From an uncultured delta proteobacterium (GTDB lineage Bacteria; Desulfobacterota; Desulfuromonadia; Geobacterales; DSM-12255), in assembly GCA_963787125.1 (NCBI GenBank), contig CAWBBV010000002.1, positions 32,001 to 96,000 of the forward strand: 64,000 nt of DNA. The letters run 5' to 3'. Numbering within the stretch: position 1 is the first letter of the stretch; every line of letters starts with the position of its first letter. The translations under genes were made by a program, and so were the position numbers. Of this stretch, positions 37,066-58,534 are shown one piece after another. The notes beneath the pieces were generated by a model. It ran no database searches and had not been told where the DNA came from. It was given only the letters and a program-made list of their open reading frames with translations.

Positions 37066-40000
37066 TTACCCCTTTCTCGCGATCCCGACCATGAATGCCT
37101 TGGTTTCGGGAATCATCGTGTTGGCATCACCCGCAGTCGGGGTCAGCAGATTAGCGGAGTCGCCCACACCGGGGGTGTGCCAGCCAAAGCACCAGGGAAG
37201 ACCGATTTGATGGACAATCCGGTCGCCGATTTTGAACGGTTTTATCCGCGGAGTGACCATGGCAACGGCATCGATCTTGCCGCGGGCCGAGGAGACCTCA
37301 ATTATATCACCATTATTGATATTTTTCTCCTTGGCCAGTTCGACACTGAGCTCGCAGAACTGCCGCGGCTGCAACTCCAAAAGCCAAGGGGTGTTACGGG
37401 TCATGACCCCGGTCTGCCAGTGTTCTGTGACCCGGTAGGTGGTGGCCACAAGCGGAAAGCGCACATCACAGGAAGCAAGCACATCTTCTTTGATGTTGGC
37501 ATCGCTGAACACTTTGCTGGCCGGATTGGTCATCTGCTTGGAGAAGAAGTTTTCCGGCACTGGACACTCCACCGGCTCGTAATGCTCGGGGAAAGGTCCG
37601 TCTTTCAGGCCCGGGCCAAAAATGGCGGCAACGCCGTCAGCCCGCATGATGAAAGGTTTTCTCCCTTCTTTTTCGTCCGCCATCGGCGGCCAGGGGCCAT
37701 CCGGTACATCACCGACCCAGGCCCCCAGGGCTCCGGTCGGCAGGACAGCAGTCGGATTCCAGTAGACGACTGCTTTTTTAAGATTGTACGGCTTACCGGT
37801 CGGATCGCAGGAAGCGCGGTTGTAAATGATGCGGCGGTTGACCGGCCAGCACCAGGTCCACTCCGGGAACATCCCCAGGCCGGTCGGGTCCTTTTTGACC
37901 CGGCGGGCCATCATATTCCCCTTTTCGTTATAGCTCTGACTATAAATCCACGAACCGCAGGAGGTGGTGCCATCGGCCTGCAGCTGGGCAAAGCCGCCGG
38001 TCAGTTCACCTTTCTTGCCAAGCATCTTTTTCGGTGCCCAGGCTGGCGGTGGCGGCGGCGCTTTTTCGCCCGGTTTGAGCGGTTTCGGCTTCTCCTCCAC
38101 ATCTTCGAGGAAATAACCGTTGATCTCTTTGGCGACCGCATGGGTGTCAATGCTCTTGATGGTGCCGTCAGCCCTTTTGAAGCCGTAGTTCCAGGTAAGA
38201 TTCGTCAGCTGTTCCGGCAGTGCGCCCCCCTCCTTGGCGTAAAGCGCTTTAACTTTCTGGAACAGTTCATGAATAATTTCCGCGTCCGGCTTGCTCTGCC
38301 CCAGCGGCTTGACTGCGGCAGTGCGCCACTGGGCCCAGCGACCGGAGTTGGTGACGGATCCCTCTTTTTCAAAAGAGGCTGCGGCCGGGAGAAAGAACAC
38401 TTCGGTTTTTATCTTGGCGGAATCCACCCCCGGTCCTTTCCAGAAGGAAGCGGTTTCGTTGTCAAACAGGTTGGTTGTCACCATCCAGTCCAGTTTGGCA
38501 AGTGCCCCTCGCACCTTGTTGGAGTTGGAACCGGAACAGGCCGGATTCTGGCCCCAGGCAAAAAAGCCCTTGAACTTCCCTTTGATCATATTGTCAAAGA
38601 TCATCAGCCACGAACCGTTCATCCCCGGATCAAGCTTGGGCAGCCAGGCGTAACCGAAATCGTTCTCCTTGGTGGCTTTTGCCCCGTAAATAGCCTTCAG
38701 ATAGCTGATCAGGTACTTGTTGCGATTTCCCCACCAGTTGGCGCTCTGGGGATCTTTTGACTTGGGAGTATGCTTCTCAATGTAGGCCGCCGTATCCTTC
38801 AGCTCGGCCGACGGTACCGGCATGTAACCGGGGAGGATATGGAACAAAAGGCCGTGATCAGTGGATCCCTGAACATTGGATTCGCCGCGCAGGGCGTTGA
38901 TACCACCGCCAGCTATCCCCATATTGCCGAGGAGCAGCTGGATAATACACATGGCCCGGATGTTCTGGGTCCCGACCGTGTGCTGAGTCCACCCCATGGC
39001 ATACAGTTCGGTGCCGGCCTTGTCCGGTTTACCGGTTGATGCGTACAGTTTGTAAACCTCCAGCAGTTTTTCCTTCGGTGTGCCGGTAGTTTTTGAAACC
39101 AGTTCCGGGGTGTAACGGCTGTAATGCTTTTTCAGCAGTTGAAAGACACAATTTGGATCCTTCAGGGTCGGATCTTTCATGACGCTGTCATCGGCGTTTT
39201 TCTGAAAGGACCAGGATTTGACGTCATAACTCCGTTTTTTGGGATCGTAGCCGGAAAAGAGCCCGGCCAGTTCCCCCGGCAGCTTGAAATCGCCACTGAC
39301 CAGATAGGCCGAGTTGGTGTAGTCGCGCACGTACTGCTCGAAATGGAGATTGTTCTGGAGGATGTAGTTAATCATGCCGCCAAGAAAGGCTATGTCCGTG
39401 CCTGAACGCAATGGTGCGTACAGGTCGGCCTTGGCGGCGCTGCGAGTAAAACGGGGATCGACACAGATTACTTTTGCCCCGGCATCTTTGGCTTTCAGAA
39501 TCCAGCGAAAGGAAACCGGGTGGTTTTCAGCGGGGTTCGCCCCCATGATGAGGATTACATCGGAATTCTTGAAATCTATCCAGTGGTTCGTCATTGCACC
39601 GCGTCCGAACGACTCTGCCAGAGCCGCAACTGTTGCGCTGTGTCAAATGCGGGCCTGATGTTCAATATACACCAGGCCTAACCCCCTTAAGAATTTCTGG
39701 TACAGATAACACTCTTCATTATCCAGGGCGGCGCTACCGACCGAGGCCATCCCCATGGTGCGGTTGACCACAGCTTCGATCTCCTTCTCGACCTCAACAG
39801 TGCCGACCTTTTCCTTGATCTTGATCTTGCTGGTAGCCAGAAACGTGGTATCACGGGCCGTCTTGACCTTTTTGGCAATCTCGTCCAGCGCCCAGTCCCA
39901 GGTAACCTCCTGCCAGTCGCTGGCACCGGCGGGACGGTACATCGGCTTCGTAACACGGGCCTTGTTGTCGCGCAGTTGGTAGACGGAGGAGCCTTTCGGG

Positions 40001-40245
40001 CAGAGCGAACCCTCGTTGATCGGATGGTCCGGGTCGCCCTCGACGTTGATGATATTGCCACCCTGGGTGTGGACGATCATGCCGCAGCCGACCGAGCAGT
40101 AAGGGCAGATGGTGGTGCTCTCCTTGGCGTGCTGGATGGCAAGGCCTTCCGCCTTGGCCTCCAGCGGGGCAAGACTGAGGCCGAAGGTGGATACCGCTAT
40201 CCCCGCTCCTGAAAACTTCAAAAAATCTCTTCTTGATACTCCCAT
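37066..40245 (-). CDS. fdnG: Formate dehydrogenase-N alpha subunit, selenoprotein (Sec UGA at 39645-39643)
   Basis: Tat motif SRRDFLK, CPYCSVGCG; ORFs 39643-40251 and 37066-39594 are in frame across EHQARI-U-HSATVAALAESFGRGAMTNHW. Confidence 0.96.
39609..39645 (-). promoter_or_regulatory. Bacterial SECIS element of fdnG
   Basis: UGA-N16-CGGCTCT-GGC-AGAGTCG hairpin. Confidence 0.85.
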
Positions 40246-40679
40246 AGGCATTCCTCCAGGGTGTTTTTATGTGTTACAACGGATGGCGCAGCGCTAAAAT
40301 GATGGTGTCGCTTTACAAATAAACCAATGTGTCATATCTATACAGGAGTGGCCTGGCAGGCAAGCCCAACTAATATCTGGCCAATTCATTGATATTCAAG
40401 ATAAAAGCGTTCGGCAGCAGAATACATAGAAACGCTTAACCCAGATAACTTACAATATGTATGCCGCTGTCAAAGTATAATAGAACAAATGTTTAATCAG
40501 CATAACCGGGCGAAATCCCTGGTTTTTTCATTAACAAAAAGCCGCTGGCCGTCTTGTAAGACCGGTTTTGGGTAGATATTTCCGACAATGTATCTTTTTG
40601 ATACATTCTGAGACAGAAGCGGCGGCCACCGCTGGCCGCTTGCGGTAGGCAGTTCGAAACGGTAATTGCTGGAGAAACT

Positions 40680-44186: not shown

Positions 44187-44284
44187 GGAAGCACTTCGGT
44201 CTCTGGTGGGCCGCCCGGTCTTCAAAACCGGTGGGGGGGATGAGAAATCTCCCCGGTGGGTTCGATTCCCATGTGCTTCCGCCA
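44187..44284 (+). tRNA. selC: tRNA-Sec (anticodon UCA)
   Basis: 8-bp acceptor stem GGAAGCAC/GTGCTTCC-GCCA, anticodon arm CCGGT-CTTCAAA-ACCGG, long variable arm, GTTCGATTC. Confidence 0.96.
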
Positions 44285-51522: not shown

Positions 51523-53439
51523 ATGAAAAATCTCATTCTCGGCACTGCCGGCCACATAGATCACGGCAAGACGTCACTCGTCAAGACACTGACCGGCGTC
51601 GACACCGATCGTCTCCCCGAGGAGAAATCCCGCGGCATTACCATCGAGCTCGGCTTTGCTGACCTGGAACTCCCCGGCGGGATTCATTTCGGGATTGTCG
51701 ATGTGCCGGGGCACGAGCGCTTTCTGCGCACCATGGTTTCCGGTGTCGTGGGGATGGACCTGGTGATGCTGGTGATTGCCGCCGATGAAGGGGTGATGCC
51801 CCAGACCCGTGAGCATCTTGATGTCTGCCAGTTGCTCGGCTTGAAAAAAGGGCTGGTGGTGCTGACCAAGAGCGACCTGGTGGAGCCTGACTGGCTGGAG
51901 CTGGTCGTGGAGGAGGTGCGGGAGTTTCTGACAGGAAGTTTTTTGGAAGGGGCTGCTGTCATCCCGGTCTCCTCCCGCAGCGGCGTCGGCTTTGACCAGT
52001 TGAAAGTCGAACTGGGGCGAATAGCTCTGGGGCTGGAGCAGAAGCGGAGCGAAGGCCATTTTCGCCTGCCGGTGGACCGGGTGTTTACCCTACCCGGCTT
52101 CGGGACGGTGGTAACCGGCACGCTTTTATCCGGCAAGGTCGCGGTGGGGGACGAGGCGGAGATTCTCCCGGCAGCCCTCCCCTGCAGGATTCGCGGCATC
52201 CAGACCCATGGCGCCAGGATGGAAGCGGGAGAAGCGGGCTCAAGACTGGCTCTGAATCTCCAGGGGGTTGACCATTACCAGGTGAAGCGCGGCGATGTGG
52301 TTGTCCCCAAGGGGATCTACCGGACGACGCGGCGGGTAGATGTTCAGCTGGAACATCTGCCATCAGCAGCGCACAACCTGAAACATCGCACTACCCTGCG
52401 GCTCCACGCGGCGACCTACGAGGTTTCAGCCCAGGTAATTCTTTTTGACAGGGAGTTCCTGGAACCGGGCGAAAGCGCCTTTGCCCAGCTGCGATTATCC
52501 CGACCGGTCCTGCTCCTTAATGGCGACCCGTTCGTGCTCCGCTCGTCATCACCCTCGGCTACCGTTGCCGGCGGCACGGTGCTTGACCCCTCCCCCCCCG
52601 GTCGCCGCCGCCGCTCCCTGGAGGCAGTGGCACTGCTGGAATACCTGGCGAGCGGCGCTGATCCTGAGGCTATCGCCGGAATGATTACGGAGAGCCTGCT
52701 CTCGGGGATAACCCATACCGATATCGCTGCCAGAAGCGGGATTCCGGCCAGACGTCTCGAAGCAGCCCTGGCGCAGCTGCTGGCGAGCGGCGCAGTAGTC
52801 CAGGTAGTGCGTGAACCAAAAAGATATCTCAGCCGCCAGGCATTCGCCTCCCTTTGCAGCCTGCTGTTAGCCGAGATGAACAGCTATTTTGCCAGTAATC
52901 CGCTTAAAGAGGGGATCGGCAAAGAGGAGTTAAAGACCAGGCTGCCGGCAAGAAGTGACCAGCGTTTTTTCACCCCCTGCCTTGCCGCCCTGGAAAAGGA
53001 TGGGAAAGTCATGGCCGAGCGTGAGCAGGTGAAACTGGTCGGACGCAAGGCAGGAGCGGAGACTGCCCAGGCGGATATCCACCGACTGATCGAGCTTGAG
53101 TTGGAAATGGGGGGGAGCGAGCCACCGTTTCTCAAGGATATCTGCAGCACGCTCCGAATAACGGAAAAACTGGTGGTTGAACACTTGAGCCTGCTGGTGA
53201 GAGAAGGGCTGGCTGTAAAGGTGAAGAGTGACGTCTTCTACCGCCCGGAGCCGCTTGCCCGTATTGAGGAAAAACTGATCGCTCATCTGCGGGAAAAGGG
53301 TGAAGTCACCCCGACCGAATTCCGGGAGATGACCGGCCTGTCACGCAAGTTCATGATTCCGCTCCTGGAGTATTTCGATGCGCAGAAGTTGACCTTAAGA
53401 GTCGGGGACAGGCGGCTGTTGCGGAAGAAACTAGGCTGA
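51523..53439 (+). CDS. selB: Selenocysteine-specific elongation factor
   Basis: [27 protein letters not shown]-terminal winged helices [13 protein letters not shown]. Confidence 0.97.
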
Positions 53440-54708: not shown

Positions 54709-55038
54709 ATGCCGAAACTTGTTGGCGAAAACCTTTTAATGAGGATCTATCTGGCCGAAAGCGACCGCTACGAACACAGGCCGCTGTATGAGGCGTTGGT
54801 GGAGATGCTGCGCACTGCCGGGTTTGCCGGTGCTACGGTGCTCAGGGGTGTGGGCGGTTTCGGCAGCCACCGGGTCTATCATTCGCAAAAGCTGCTCGAT
54901 CTTTCCGCCGACCTGCCGCTGATCATTGAGGCGGTGGAAAGCCAGGAGATGATCAATGCTATCATGCCACGCCTGGACGAGATGATGACCGGTGGCACGG
55001 TCACGCTGGAAAAGGTTAGCGTGATCCGCTACAGTTAG
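54709..55038 (+). CDS. DUF190 (PII-like) protein
   Basis: MRIYLAESD, GATVLRG..GFG, LSADLP. Confidence 0.9.
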   Translation: MPKLVGENLLMRIYLAESDRYEHRPLYEALVEMLRTAGFAGATVLRGVGGFGSHRVYHSQKLLDLSADLPLIIEAVESQEMINAIMPRLDEMMTGGTVTLEKVSVIRYS

Positions 55039-55040
55039 CC

Positions 55041-55166
55041 TTTCCAATTCCAGATCAAGAGTGATATCTAGGCGGTGAGGATTGAGGCGACGAAAGCGTA
55101 CAGACAGTACCTTTTAGGAGCCGAAGACGAGCCAACGAAGATAGCGCCTTGATGTGGAATTGGAAT
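55041..55166. repeat. Structured repeat family B, copy 2
   Basis: TTCCAATTCCAGATCAAG...CTTGATGTGGAATTGGAA; core shared with copy 1. Confidence 0.8.
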
Positions 55167-55173
55167 CACCTTC

Positions 55174-55467
55174 TCACGAACAGCAGTTGCCCCCGGCTAT
55201 CTTGCCTAGCTTATGTTCCTGCAGCCACTCATTAATCATGCCGCTGGCGCAGCCGACCCCTGAATCAACCTTGATTGCCTTGACCGGACAGTTGAGCGCA
55301 CAGGCGCCACACTCCATGCAGGCATCACGATCAAGCAGCCGCGCCCTGTTATCCCGAAGGGCAAAAACCTGGTGAGGACAGACCTCCAGGCAACGACCGC
55401 AGCCGACGCAGGCCGGTTGGTCAAGTTCAAGAGTAGCTACGTTCTGCAGATATCTGAAGCCTTGCAT
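55174..55467 (-). CDS. hgcB: Mercury methylation ferredoxin HgcB
   Basis: CVGCGRCLEVCPH, CMECGACALNCP, GVGCA, C-terminal CC; directly after hgcA. Confidence 0.95.
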   Translation of the reverse strand: MQGFRYLQNVATLELDQPACVGCGRCLEVCPHQVFALRDNRARLLDRDACMECGACALNCPVKAIKVDSGVGCASGMINEWLQEHKLGKIAGGNCCS

Positions 55468-55477
55468 AACTCCCCCT

Positions 55478-56665
55478 TCAAATAAATTTCCCTGCCAGCA
55501 GCAGCATGATTCCCAGAATAATCGCTCCTGCCATAATCGGCAGGCTGAGGCGCATCTCCTTTTTTACCCCGGAACGGGATGTATAGGGGGTGCAGCCGGT
55601 GAAGTTGAGAGTGTAAAAAGCGCTGACCGCAGGTAAGGCAATAAAAGCGGCGACGGTGATAATGCTGCTCCAGTCAATACTGCTGACAATAGAACGGCAG
55701 GCAGCAACCCAGAGGATGCCAACCAGCCACCCCTTGACAGCAAAACTTGACCCCGGCAGCCATGGCAGAAGCAGCGGCCCGAGGATAATTCCGCTCAGCA
55801 CGGCCCCGGCGTATACCAGCATAGCAACAATTCCGGCATTCATTCCACCGGCCAGAGCAAAGAAGAGCAGGATGATCCCTCCGGCAACAAGCAGAGATTT
55901 CATCGCCAGAACGAGCTCCACCGGCAGAAGAACCAACCGCTCGTAAAAAGTGAAGGTCAGATGCTGCATCTCCGGCGTGCTAACCATGCCGTTATCGAGA
56001 TAAGCTGGGATATCAGCCGCCTGCACCGCCCCAAAGCTGACCGTAAAGCCGGAGCGTTTGGCCACCTGGTGCGCCGCTACCCCCGGGGCACCGAGAAGCG
56101 GCAGAATAAGGCGCCTGTGGGTGACAACCTGAGACAGACCGGTTGCCGCAATGCGGCGGACCAGTTCACCGGTGCCAAAAGTCCCTTTGCCGGCAGCACA
56201 CCAGACGTTGATGCCGTAGGTTTCAAGCACCAGCAGCCAGACGTTCCGCCCCGCAAGGGAGCGGCGCACAGCGTCGTAGCTCATCTTGTAGTTGGCCGTC
56301 ACCAGCACCGGAGCGTCCGGCATCGGGGTGCCGACCGCATAGAGCCCCGGCGGGACCATGTAGGTCATCCGGCCAAGACCCCAGCGCGCCTTCCAGGCTC
56401 CCAGCCGGTCACTCCAATCATAAGCTGAAGAAATCCTGGCAACACGGCCGGCCGGTGTCTCCAGCCAGCTCATGAAACCCGGTACTTGCTCGGTTATCTC
56501 TCCACCGCCGGCGGAGGTAGGGGGGCCTCAGCAGGGAGGTTTATCACTGCCGTTGCCAGCCTCAATTGAACAGACTGCAGCAGGCAAAACGCTCGTGGCC
56601 GCTGTGGCTTTTCTACTGTTTTTGATCTTGAAGGCAACGCCGGGCTCTTTATTTACTTGCAACAT
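55478..56665 (-). CDS. hgcA: Mercury methylation corrinoid protein HgcA, with probable Sec-containing N-terminal extension (UGA 56530-56528)
   Basis: Cap helix GINVWCAAGKGTF, TANYKMS, TM domain, NFTGCTPYTS.SGV; frame stays open upstream of 56473 to ATG 56665 except for one TGA in PPC-U-GPP. Confidence 0.92.
56500..56530 (-). promoter_or_regulatory. Candidate SECIS element of hgcA
   Basis: UGA-N11-CTCCGCC-GGC-GGTGGAG hairpin. Confidence 0.7.
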
Positions 56666-57123
56666 GCAATCGTTCCCCCCTGAGATATCGTTTCCTGTCG
56701 CTCCTGGATAAGGACGCCATTGAGCAACTCCAGAGACCTGACCACGGTATCGCGCTCAAACGGGCTCAGCTGTCCGAAAATCCTCACAAGCCGCGCTGAC
56801 ATGTAGGTGTCAATCTTGCCGACGGTTTCCAGACCGGCAGCTGTGAGGCCCAGCAGCGTCACCCGGCGGTCATCCTGTGACACCCGCCTGGAGACAAGCC
56901 CCTTAATCTCCAGCGTTTTGACCTGGCGACTGAAGGTGGTGATATCCATACCCAACTCTTCGGCAACCTGCTGCATTGACGGGCTCCCCGTCCGGCGGAT
57001 CTCCATGAGAATATGGCTCTGGACCATGGAAATCTGTTCGCCGCAGCAGTCGTCGCAGCAGGCCGCGTTCAATAATCCGAAGCGGCGGGTAAAAATCTGC
57101 AGCTGTTCCCTGACTGTTTTCAT
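56653..57123 (-). CDS. Cys-rich MarR-family regulator
   Basis: QSHILMEI, MQQVAEELGMDITTFSRQVKTLE..GLV, DRRVTLLGLT..G; ACCDDCCG and terminal ACCK. Confidence 0.9.
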   Translation of the reverse strand: MKTVREQLQIFTRRFGLLNAACCDDCCGEQISMVQSHILMEIRRTGSPSMQQVAEELGMDITTFSRQVKTLEIKGLVSRRVSQDDRRVTLLGLTAAGLETVGKIDTYMSARLVRIFGQLSPFERDTVVRSLELLNGVLIQERQETISQGGTIACCK

Positions 57124-57155
57124 TGAAGGCACTCCTGCAGATAAAACTAGCTTTA

Positions 57156-57176
57156 TTATTTGCAAAATGCAACTAA
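57156..57176. promoter_or_regulatory. Palindromic candidate operator upstream of marR-hgcAB
   Basis: TTATTTGCA-aaa-TGCAACTAA (8/9 IR). Confidence 0.6.
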
Positions 57177-57277
57177 AATTTGTCGGGTTTATTACAAATC
57201 AGTATAGTGGAAATGGTGCGAGAGAGAGAAAATGAGGAATGGTATACTGGCTGAAGCAATAGATCTGATCTGGGCGG

Positions 57278-58534
57278 TCAGCTGCAGACCTGATTCCTTC
57301 CTTTGCTTTTAGCCCTGTAAAGCGCCTTGTCAGCAGCCTTCATGATTTCAGCGGCCCCGCCCTGGCCTTCCCCTGACTCCGCCACGCCAATACTTATGGT
57401 CACGGAAACCTCTGTGGAGCTGCTCTTGCTGCCGCGTTTGCCTTCGCCCTGCTTTGGGTCTTTGGGCCGGTCATCACTGCGGATTGAGAGGCGATATGCT
57501 TCGATACTCTTTCTGACCCCTTCCAGATGCGGAATCACCTCAGCAGCCTTTTTACCGGGGAAAAGCACCGTAAACTCTTCACCGCCATAACGGTACGCCT
57601 TCCCCCCGCCGCTGACTGAGTCGATCCTCTTTGCCACCATCTTCAAAACCTGATCACCCACATCATGACCATAGGTGTCATTGAACCGTTTGAAATGATC
57701 CACATCCAGCATGGCAACCGCGTAGCGCCTGCCAAGACCGTGAAGACTTTCATTCAACGCCCGCCGCGACGGAATGCCGGTCAGATCATCCCTGAACGCC
57801 ATATTATAGGAGTCCTGGAGGATGCTGAGAGTGATGATGATCCCGGCAGCAGTGCAGAAAAGCGCCGGCAGGTCCGGAGAAGTTATCTTTGCCAGACTGA
57901 TGACAATTGCCAGGAGCGCCCCGAGCAGGCCGCTTTCAATGGGAGCCTGACGCTTTATTGCCAGAAAAACGATAAATGACATGGAGACCAGCGCCAGTGC
58001 TAGCAGCGGTTGCGGCAGGAGCAGAGTGTCGAAAAGCGGCTGGGAGGAAAATTGGCGGGTCAAGAGCGGCTGGACATCTTCAAAGTGATGCCTGAAAAGG
58101 AGCCAGACAATCGCCGCCTGCATAACAATAAAACCGAAGCGGAGTCTTCCGGCTATGGAGAAGACCCCCCTCTCACGCATCAGCGCCAGAAGAGCAAAGT
58201 TCAAGGGCAAAAGCAGTGCAAGGCCAAGATACACACCTTGTTGAACATAACCGCTGACGCCTGTTTCCAGGTAAGAACGGTAGAAATAGTAGAAAATGCT
58301 GATCAGGAAAAGTGCTGTGAACGGACGACCACGATGGAAATGAACCGACAGAAACATCCCGGCAACGGCAGCAAGATAAGGTGAGATCAGGAGCAGCTCT
58401 TTGTGGGCCGGAGCGAGAGTCGCAATTTTGGGTAAAAGGAAAACTGCGGCAGCAAGTAGTGCCAATGGTACCAGGAAAATAAGAGTTTTTTTGGCTGTGG
58501 CTGTACTCACTAAGCTTTTGCGCCTCTCAATCAC
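57278..58534 (-). CDS. Membrane-bound diguanylate cyclase
   Basis: Multiple TMs, DDLTG, DVDHFKRFNDTYGHDVGD, RYGGEEF. Confidence 0.93.
   Translation of the reverse strand: MIERRKSLVSTATAKKTLIFLVPLALLAAAVFLLPKIATLAPAHKELLLISPYLAAVAGMFLSVHFHRGRPFTALFLISIFYYFYRSYLETGVSGYVQQGVYLGLALLLPLNFALLALMRERGVFSIAGRLRFGFIVMQAAIVWLLFRHHFEDVQPLLTRQFSSQPLFDTLLLPQPLLALALVSMSFIVFLAIKRQAPIESGLLGALLAIVISLAKITSPDLPALFCTAAGIIITLSILQDSYNMAFRDDLTGIPSRRALNESLHGLGRRYAVAMLDVDHFKRFNDTYGHDVGDQVLKMVAKRIDSVSGGGKAYRYGGEEFTVLFPGKKAAEVIPHLEGVRKSIEAYRLSIRSDDRPKDPKQGEGKRGSKSSSTEVSVTISIGVAESGEGQGGAAEIMKAADKALYRAKSKGRNQVCS

Follow-up and report, generated by a model that had tools for sequence, protein, structure and literature searches.

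Where does the HgcA protein begin, and does the UGA codon upstream of its annotated start terminate translation or specify selenocysteine (Sec)? The question is raised by an hgcA locus of an uncultured delta proteobacterium, located within a window of 64,000 nucleotides (contig CAWBBV010000002.1 of assembly GCA_963787125.1, positions 32,001 to 96,000; all positions given below for this genome are those of the window, unless a contig is named). The formation of methylmercury poses a problem for environmental health, and both biochemical work and the design of constructs depend on knowing where HgcA truly begins. An earlier note, made from the letters of this DNA alone, proposed that HgcA is a selenoprotein with a hidden 64-codon N-terminal extension that carries a Cys-Sec pair, and with a SECIS-like hairpin behind the UGA. 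This core reading is supported by conservation among relatives and by the Sec machinery of the genome, as laid out below.

The hgcA gene and its product

Ordinary ORF calling splits hgcA into two minus-strand ORFs in one frame, a 331-codon ORF at 55478-56473, which begins at ATG 56473, and a 45-codon ORF at 56528-56665. Read from ATG 56665 to the stop at 55478, the frame is interrupted by a single TGA at 56530-56528 and is otherwise open, so that the full-length gene (55478..56665, minus strand) comprises 395 codons plus the stop. With TGA translated as U, the product has 395 residues, with Cys45 followed by U46 and residues 44-48 reading P-C-U-G-P; the putative Sec codon (56528..56530, minus strand) is thus codon 46, an assignment that draws on the reading of the frame and on the relatives. 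The 64-codon extension (56474..56665, minus strand) is overlooked by stop-to-stop ORF calling. ATG 56665 is the earliest ATG, GTG or TTG downstream of the preceding in-frame stop, and direct reading of the sequence places a Shine-Dalgarno-like AGGGGGGA (56674..56681, minus strand) 8 nt upstream of it. The gene in front encodes a MarR-family regulator (56653..57165, minus strand; Pfam MarR, 48.7 bits), the start codon of which is uncertain and the stop of which overlaps the hgcA start by 13 nt. When the sequence was reread, all coordinates that the earlier note had given for the 395-residue frame and its one TGA proved correct, and both the ribosome-binding site and the overlap with the 3' end of marR were where it had put them. 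Its expectation that standard annotation would truncate the gene was borne out as well, the NCBI/ENA record for the source genome being the 331-residue form. The full-length protein, queried with Cys at the Sec codon, was absent from the protein collection, a query that is blind to U-bearing records. A promoter and terminator scan of 55000-57500 returned no promoter-like site on the minus strand, a result that says little.

The identity of the product is clear from several features. The long form matches NCBIfam NF040863 across residues 75-394 with 445.9 bits (cut-off 275) and contains the cap-helix motif NVWCAAGK at residues 153-160, in columns that are invariant in an alignment of 48 sequences. 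Parks et al. in 2013 are said to have defined HgcA by this motif, N(V/I)WCA(A/G)GK, with the Cys that serves as the corrinoid ligand. Immediately downstream lies the gene for the ferredoxin partner HgcB (55174..55467, minus strand; NCBIfam NF040864, 134.4 bits, cut-off 99), in which residue 73 is Cys, not Sec, and the C-terminus reads CCS. The C-terminal domain of HgcA consists of five transmembrane helices, according to the pertinent part of PMC11588087, and an AlphaFold2 model of the window's protein contains such a five-helix domain (helices 240-273, 275-299, 308-326, 334-357 and 367-394).

Conservation of the UGA codon and the extension

Relatives were sought by scanning one genome per species; 248 were found and the best 80 loci were kept. 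Among these best 80 of 248, the codon at the Sec site is TGA in 65, TGC in 10, TGT in 4 and unreadable in 1, a locus (L028) where the contig begins inside the gene, hence 79 readable loci. The earlier note had pointed to upstream conservation of Cys-TGA, as CU or CC, as a check on its reading, and the tally of 65 TGA and 14 Cys codons among the best 80 of 248 relatives speaks in its favor. The flanking peptide, DKPPC-U/C-GPPTSAGGGEI.E.VPGF..WL.TP.G, is conserved, with third codon positions that vary, and in the 48-sequence alignment C45, U/C46, G47, P48, G55, G63, F64 and W67 are invariant, the conservation around the Sec site being on a par with that of the enzyme core. The starts downstream of the site are far less uniform: in the 66 TGA forms (the 65 relative loci plus the window), the next in-frame ATG, GTG or TTG lies 10 to 54 codons on, and a start at +19, as in the window, occurs in only 3 of the 66. 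The annotated start is therefore not conserved, and since the peptide GPPTSAGGGEI.E.VPGF is highly conserved and no conserved downstream start accompanies it, translation, to judge from the alignments, includes the codons that lie from the TGA to the annotated ATG. In 11 database proteins, all of them with CC and beginning MLQV... or MKIK..., the extension is borne as a continuous ORF.

These observations bear on the simplest alternative, namely, that the TGA is a true stop, that HgcA has only 331 residues, and that the 45-codon upstream ORF, which ends in PPC, is translated separately or is nothing at all. Stop-to-stop ORF calling yields exactly this outcome, and public sources give the 331-residue form for the source genome. 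Yet the 18 codons that separate the TGA from the ATG show conservation as protein, with third positions free to vary; a Cys codon at the same place makes one continuous ORF of the gene in 14 relatives; and, among the best 80 of 248 relatives, the supposed stop is always TGA and never TAA or TAG (0 cases). We therefore give hardly any credence to a true stop, and turn to the RNA signal that decoding of the UGA as Sec would require.

A candidate SECIS hairpin

The hairpin CTCCGCC-GGC-GGTGGAG reported by the earlier note was found at 56500..56516 on the minus strand, as a 7-bp stem (CUCCGCC/GGUGGAG) closed by a GGC loop at 56509-56507, and is kept, with compensatory changes, in relatives. It begins 12 nt after the UGA, that is, at nt 15 counted from the U of the UGA, with the stem at nt 15-31 and the loop at nt 22-24. 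The distance from UGA to loop given for bSECISearch is reportedly 16-37 nt, roughly, and the element shows the SECIS form, a stem-loop shortly 3' of the UGA with a G in the apical loop; at the alignment level, loop position G28 is invariant and G29 is present in at least 90% of sequences.

The window contains a second element with which the hairpin can be compared. An fdnG-like selenoprotein gene (37066..40251, minus strand; formate-dehydrogenase-like, 1061 residues, U203 at 39645-39643) has an 8-bp hairpin with a GGC loop behind its Sec codon. The two hairpins share the location inside the coding sequence just 3' of the UGA and the GGC apical loop, a likeness that had been noticed from the sequence before, and differ in stem length and loop position, the fdnG-like stem having 8 bp with the loop from nt 27 and the hgcA stem 7 bp with the loop from nt 22, counted from the U of the UGA.

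Across 65 distinct TGA-type sequences, 97.1% of the cells of the 7-bp stem are paired, and double-sided changes occur at three of the seven pairs: C-G to U-A (n=8), G-C to A-U (n=3) or to C-G (n=1), and U-A to G-C (n=1). The covariation score of the whole tested structure is 0.155, against a shuffled mean of 0.125, with none of 500 shuffles scoring as high, and registers of the hairpin slid along the alignment score 0.033-0.102. A further, long-range lower stem, suggested by a minimum-energy fold in which the UGA pairs with CCGGGUUUCA, was dropped at 77.3% paired and with no double-sided change, its pair 14/57 being unpaired in 50 of the 65 sequences.

The TGA and Cys forms differ in this element. 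All seven pairs are kept in 53 of the 66 TGA forms and six of seven in the other 13, whereas the 14 Cys forms keep 3-6 of 7 and none keeps all 7, a raw contrast that is to be read with relatedness in mind because the tree-corrected sign test of hairpin against TGA (median p 0.25) rests on only 3 independent pairs with well-supported branches, too few for it to reach significance. The test used a tree of the part of the protein that follows the hairpin; the Sec/Cys label changes 10 times on the best tree, 3 of these changes being forced by well-supported branches. Mean local folding energy is -11.5 kcal/mol in TGA forms versus -6.8 in Cys forms. The restriction of full pairing (7/7) to TGA forms is another point that does not fit a TGA acting as an ordinary stop.

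The hairpin overlaps the codons of the conserved S-A-G-G-G, and part of its conservation could therefore be protein constraint. Taken to the limit, this consideration would make the hairpin a by-product of S-A-G-G-G coding, with Sec inserted by way of some other element or not at all: the stem is built of Ser, Ala and Gly codons, three Gly codons give the G-rich 3' arm, and no SECIS family of Rfam matches. The synonymous positions of the stem tell a different story, being limited in the TGA-type alignment to bases that pair. Of 65 sequences, 64 have C or U in column 24, the third position of the Ser codon; column 33, a Gly third position, is C or U opposite G, and U in 3 of the 4 sequences in which the partner is A; and in 8 sequences an amino-acid change turns pair 21/37 from C-G into U-A. 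The Cys forms, moreover, retain the Gly-Gly and yet alter the 5' arm, losing the pairing. A hairpin that merely follows from the protein is thus very unlikely in our estimation, and the element is probably a SECIS, on the strength of its position, form and pairing pattern.

Two results stand against the element. As a single sequence, the hgcA stretch folds no better than its shuffles do (z -0.06 and +0.70), nor does the fdnG stretch (z -0.48), so that folding energy is uninformative here. Rfam returned no curated family: at the gathering score it gave no SECIS match, and up to an E-value of 10 only three chance-level hits (E 0.74 to 3). The fdnG element of the window was likewise missed at the gathering score, and the Rfam library seems, therefore, to be short of a suitable SECIS model.

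Selenocysteine machinery of the genome

The means of decoding UGA as Sec are encoded close by. A tRNA-Sec gene lies at 44187..44280 on the plus strand (Rfam RF01852, 78.8 bits, gathering score 47), and selB follows on the same strand, with a matched range of 51535..53424 (TIGR00475, 362.6 bits, cut-off 242.25; G000:C2:83535-85424 in contig coordinates), while selA and selD were found elsewhere in the source genome, outside the window. The selD gene (G000:C7:238403-239323, locus L010) has one in-frame TGA of its own and probably encodes a Sec-containing selenophosphate synthetase.

Because the frame, the codon and the hairpin are conserved and the genome contains the complete Sec machinery, we infer that the UGA is decoded as Sec and that hgcA very probably encodes a selenoprotein of 395 residues.

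The N-terminal tail and a possible short form

The AlphaFold2 model, built from the 48-sequence alignment (mean pLDDT 74.6, pTM 0.67), gives an idea of how the extension relates to the enzyme. The pLDDT is below 50 for residues 1-52 and 93-94 over residues 61-80, a part of the chain for which strands are modelled at 64-70 and 73-78. Given these low values, the N-terminal tail is probably flexible, and the model does not provide its docking place; about 15 residues would separate the Cys-Sec pair, which probably sits on a floppy arm, from the strand that opens the folded domain. As the modelled strand spans 64-70, the annotated Met65 falls inside a folded strand.

This placement of Met65 has to be considered along with the idea that both forms are made, a long Sec form and a short form that arises by termination at the UGA and internal initiation at ATG 56473, the tail then being an accessory that tunes activity without being needed for it. 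The source genome does have an ATG at +19, and Cys takes the place of Sec in 14 of 79 readable relatives, which makes Sec itself dispensable in evolution. Biochemistry lends the idea some weight, too: as described in the relevant passages of PMC11588087, an N-terminally His-tagged HgcA of ND132, which in purified form runs at the "expected 37 kDa", methylates Hg in E. coli lysates, and, by arithmetic, a protein of that size corresponds to the short form without the Sec tail. Other data point the other way. A +19 start is confined to 3 of 66 TGA forms; elsewhere, with the next start up to 54 codons on, conserved folded residues would be lost; no Shine-Dalgarno motif is seen in the 20 nt before ATG 56473; and Met65 lies within a confidently modelled strand. 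Production of both forms accordingly strikes us as improbable, and the 395-residue Sec form remains the preferred product.

The same facts delimit what can be claimed for Sec in mercury methylation. The earlier note held that methylation in this organism uses or depends on Sec, of which the first part appears likely, whereas strict dependence is unsupported, because 14 of the 79 readable relatives use Cys and the 37 kDa ND132 HgcA methylates.

Genes upstream of hgcA

The MarR ORF (56653-57165, minus strand) is rich in Cys, bearing CCDDCCGEQ close to its N-terminus and ending in ...IACCK. At least 700 nt of sequence upstream of hgcA are available in 74 related loci; a same-strand upstream ORF with CCxxCCG was seen in 30 of these 74, one ending in CC[K/N] in 25, and one with both features in 24, and the ORFs of two such relatives that were checked (L016:1025-1510 and L066:979-1494) are both MarR by Pfam. 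These sequence features make the Cys-rich MarR protein a candidate for a thiolate-based sensor of Hg or As. PMC10349881, in the passage concerned, places a MarR regulator upstream of hgcA in Geobacter daltonii and adds nothing further about it.

A different neighbor is found in six Syntrophus-like relatives (L043:440-1495, L058:379-1437, L056, L064, L081 and L088), where a carrier of about 350 residues, ending ...NVAFWF..., is encoded directly upstream of a Sec-type hgcA. Two of these carriers were checked and belong to Pfam SBF (PF01758, about 200 bits), a family that includes the Acr3 arsenite carriers. An SBF carrier beside hgcA fits the link between hgcAB and ars genes reported in the part of PMC10349881 that deals with it. 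In one other relative (L015:844-2181), the hgcA frame read with TGA as U runs about 50 codons beyond the usual C-terminus into hgcB-like territory, probably an artefact of reading the usual TGA stop as U and not a fusion.

A possible course of events and its implications

We envisage that translation would start at ATG 56665, coupled to translation of the overlapping marR-type gene upstream, and that the UGA at 56530-56528 would be decoded as Sec by SelB and Sec-tRNA(Sec), with SelB recruited via the predicted 7-bp, GGC-looped hairpin at 56516-56500. In the product, a flexible tail that bears the vicinal Cys45-Sec46 would precede an HgcA of the usual build, in which the corrinoid-binding domain, with its NVWCAAGK cap helix, leads into five transmembrane helices. 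The Cys-Sec pair could serve as a ligand for soft metals, capturing Hg(II) and offering it to the methyl-corrinoid, perhaps jointly with the Cys-Cys at the C-terminus of HgcB. Should the Cys-Sec tail bind Hg(II), work on the short form would overlook a part of the mechanism, and methylation could be affected by how much selenium is available.

A more ambitious proposal can be assembled from the same elements, in which the flexible Cys-Sec arm would be the high-affinity Hg(II) acceptor of the methylation machinery and, with the CC tail of HgcB, would pass the metal on to the methyl-corrinoid, S-A-G-G-G would be dictated by the RNA hairpin and not by protein function, and the Cys-rich, translationally coupled MarR would be the thiolate sensor of the operon. 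It is, in our view, rather unlikely to hold. If the Cys-Sec arm were indeed the Hg(II) acceptor, the amount of methylmercury that most methylators produce at environmental Hg levels would be gated by their selenium supply and by the activity of SelB.

Relation to known forms of HgcA

Sec-containing HgcA is already known, having been published in 2022-2023, and the gene in the window is a further example of a known feature. A journal version of the work by Haft and Gwadz reportedly appeared in J Bacteriol in 2023. The main text of their preprint (bioRxiv 10.1101/2022.07.06.499078) describes most HgcA proteins as selenoproteins whose CU motif precedes the formerly annotated start. PCUGP was invariant there, being encoded by 20 of the 20 HgcA genes that were examined (GSU1440 and DND132_1056 among them), and the extended proteins are 363-400 residues long. 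The statement of the earlier note that a CU dipeptide had been reported in some HgcA proteins is thus correct and, going by that text, extends beyond "some" to most of them. Reference data, it is stated there, have entered NCBI's annotation pipeline. The argument of the preprint proceeds from CU and CC motifs in organometallic systems, and the idea of Hg(II) binding by Cys-Sec follows it (10.1101/2022.07.06.499078); the points made here about the N-terminus, the tail and selenium had already been raised in the same text. Among later sources, a table in a 2026 review gives HgcA (NF040863) with the motif CU (PMC13188914, in the portion bearing on HgcA), and the passage on the subject in PMC11588087 goes no further than saying that some HgcA and HgcB homologues "may be selenoproteins".

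The Cys-Cys forms of HgcA (for example, the database proteins P0004-P0013 and the loci L021, L044 and L079) resemble the protein in the window in having the extension, in the context PC-C-GP, and in starting with MLQV... or MKIK.... They differ in having Cys for Sec and STGGG, TTRGG or VITGG in place of SAGGG, with the pairing of the hairpin lost. Often they have extra upstream CC pairs, as Haft and Gwadz remark in the preprint text with the words "packing with extra Cys" (10.1101/2022.07.06.499078).

Compared with the Sec-type HgcA as described in that main text, the protein in the window shows no essential difference: the two share one UGA upstream of the old start, PCUGP, a length of 395 residues that falls within 363-400, and Sec machinery, and the extension of the window's HgcA is closely alignable with the one that the preprint gives for GSU1440. 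For hgcA itself the preprint main text describes no SECIS, its mentions of SECIS or hairpin being in the methods and for SaoC only. Judged against this main text, as distinct from the journal version and supplements, the sole addition made here to the known Sec-type HgcA is comparative support for the SECIS hairpin.
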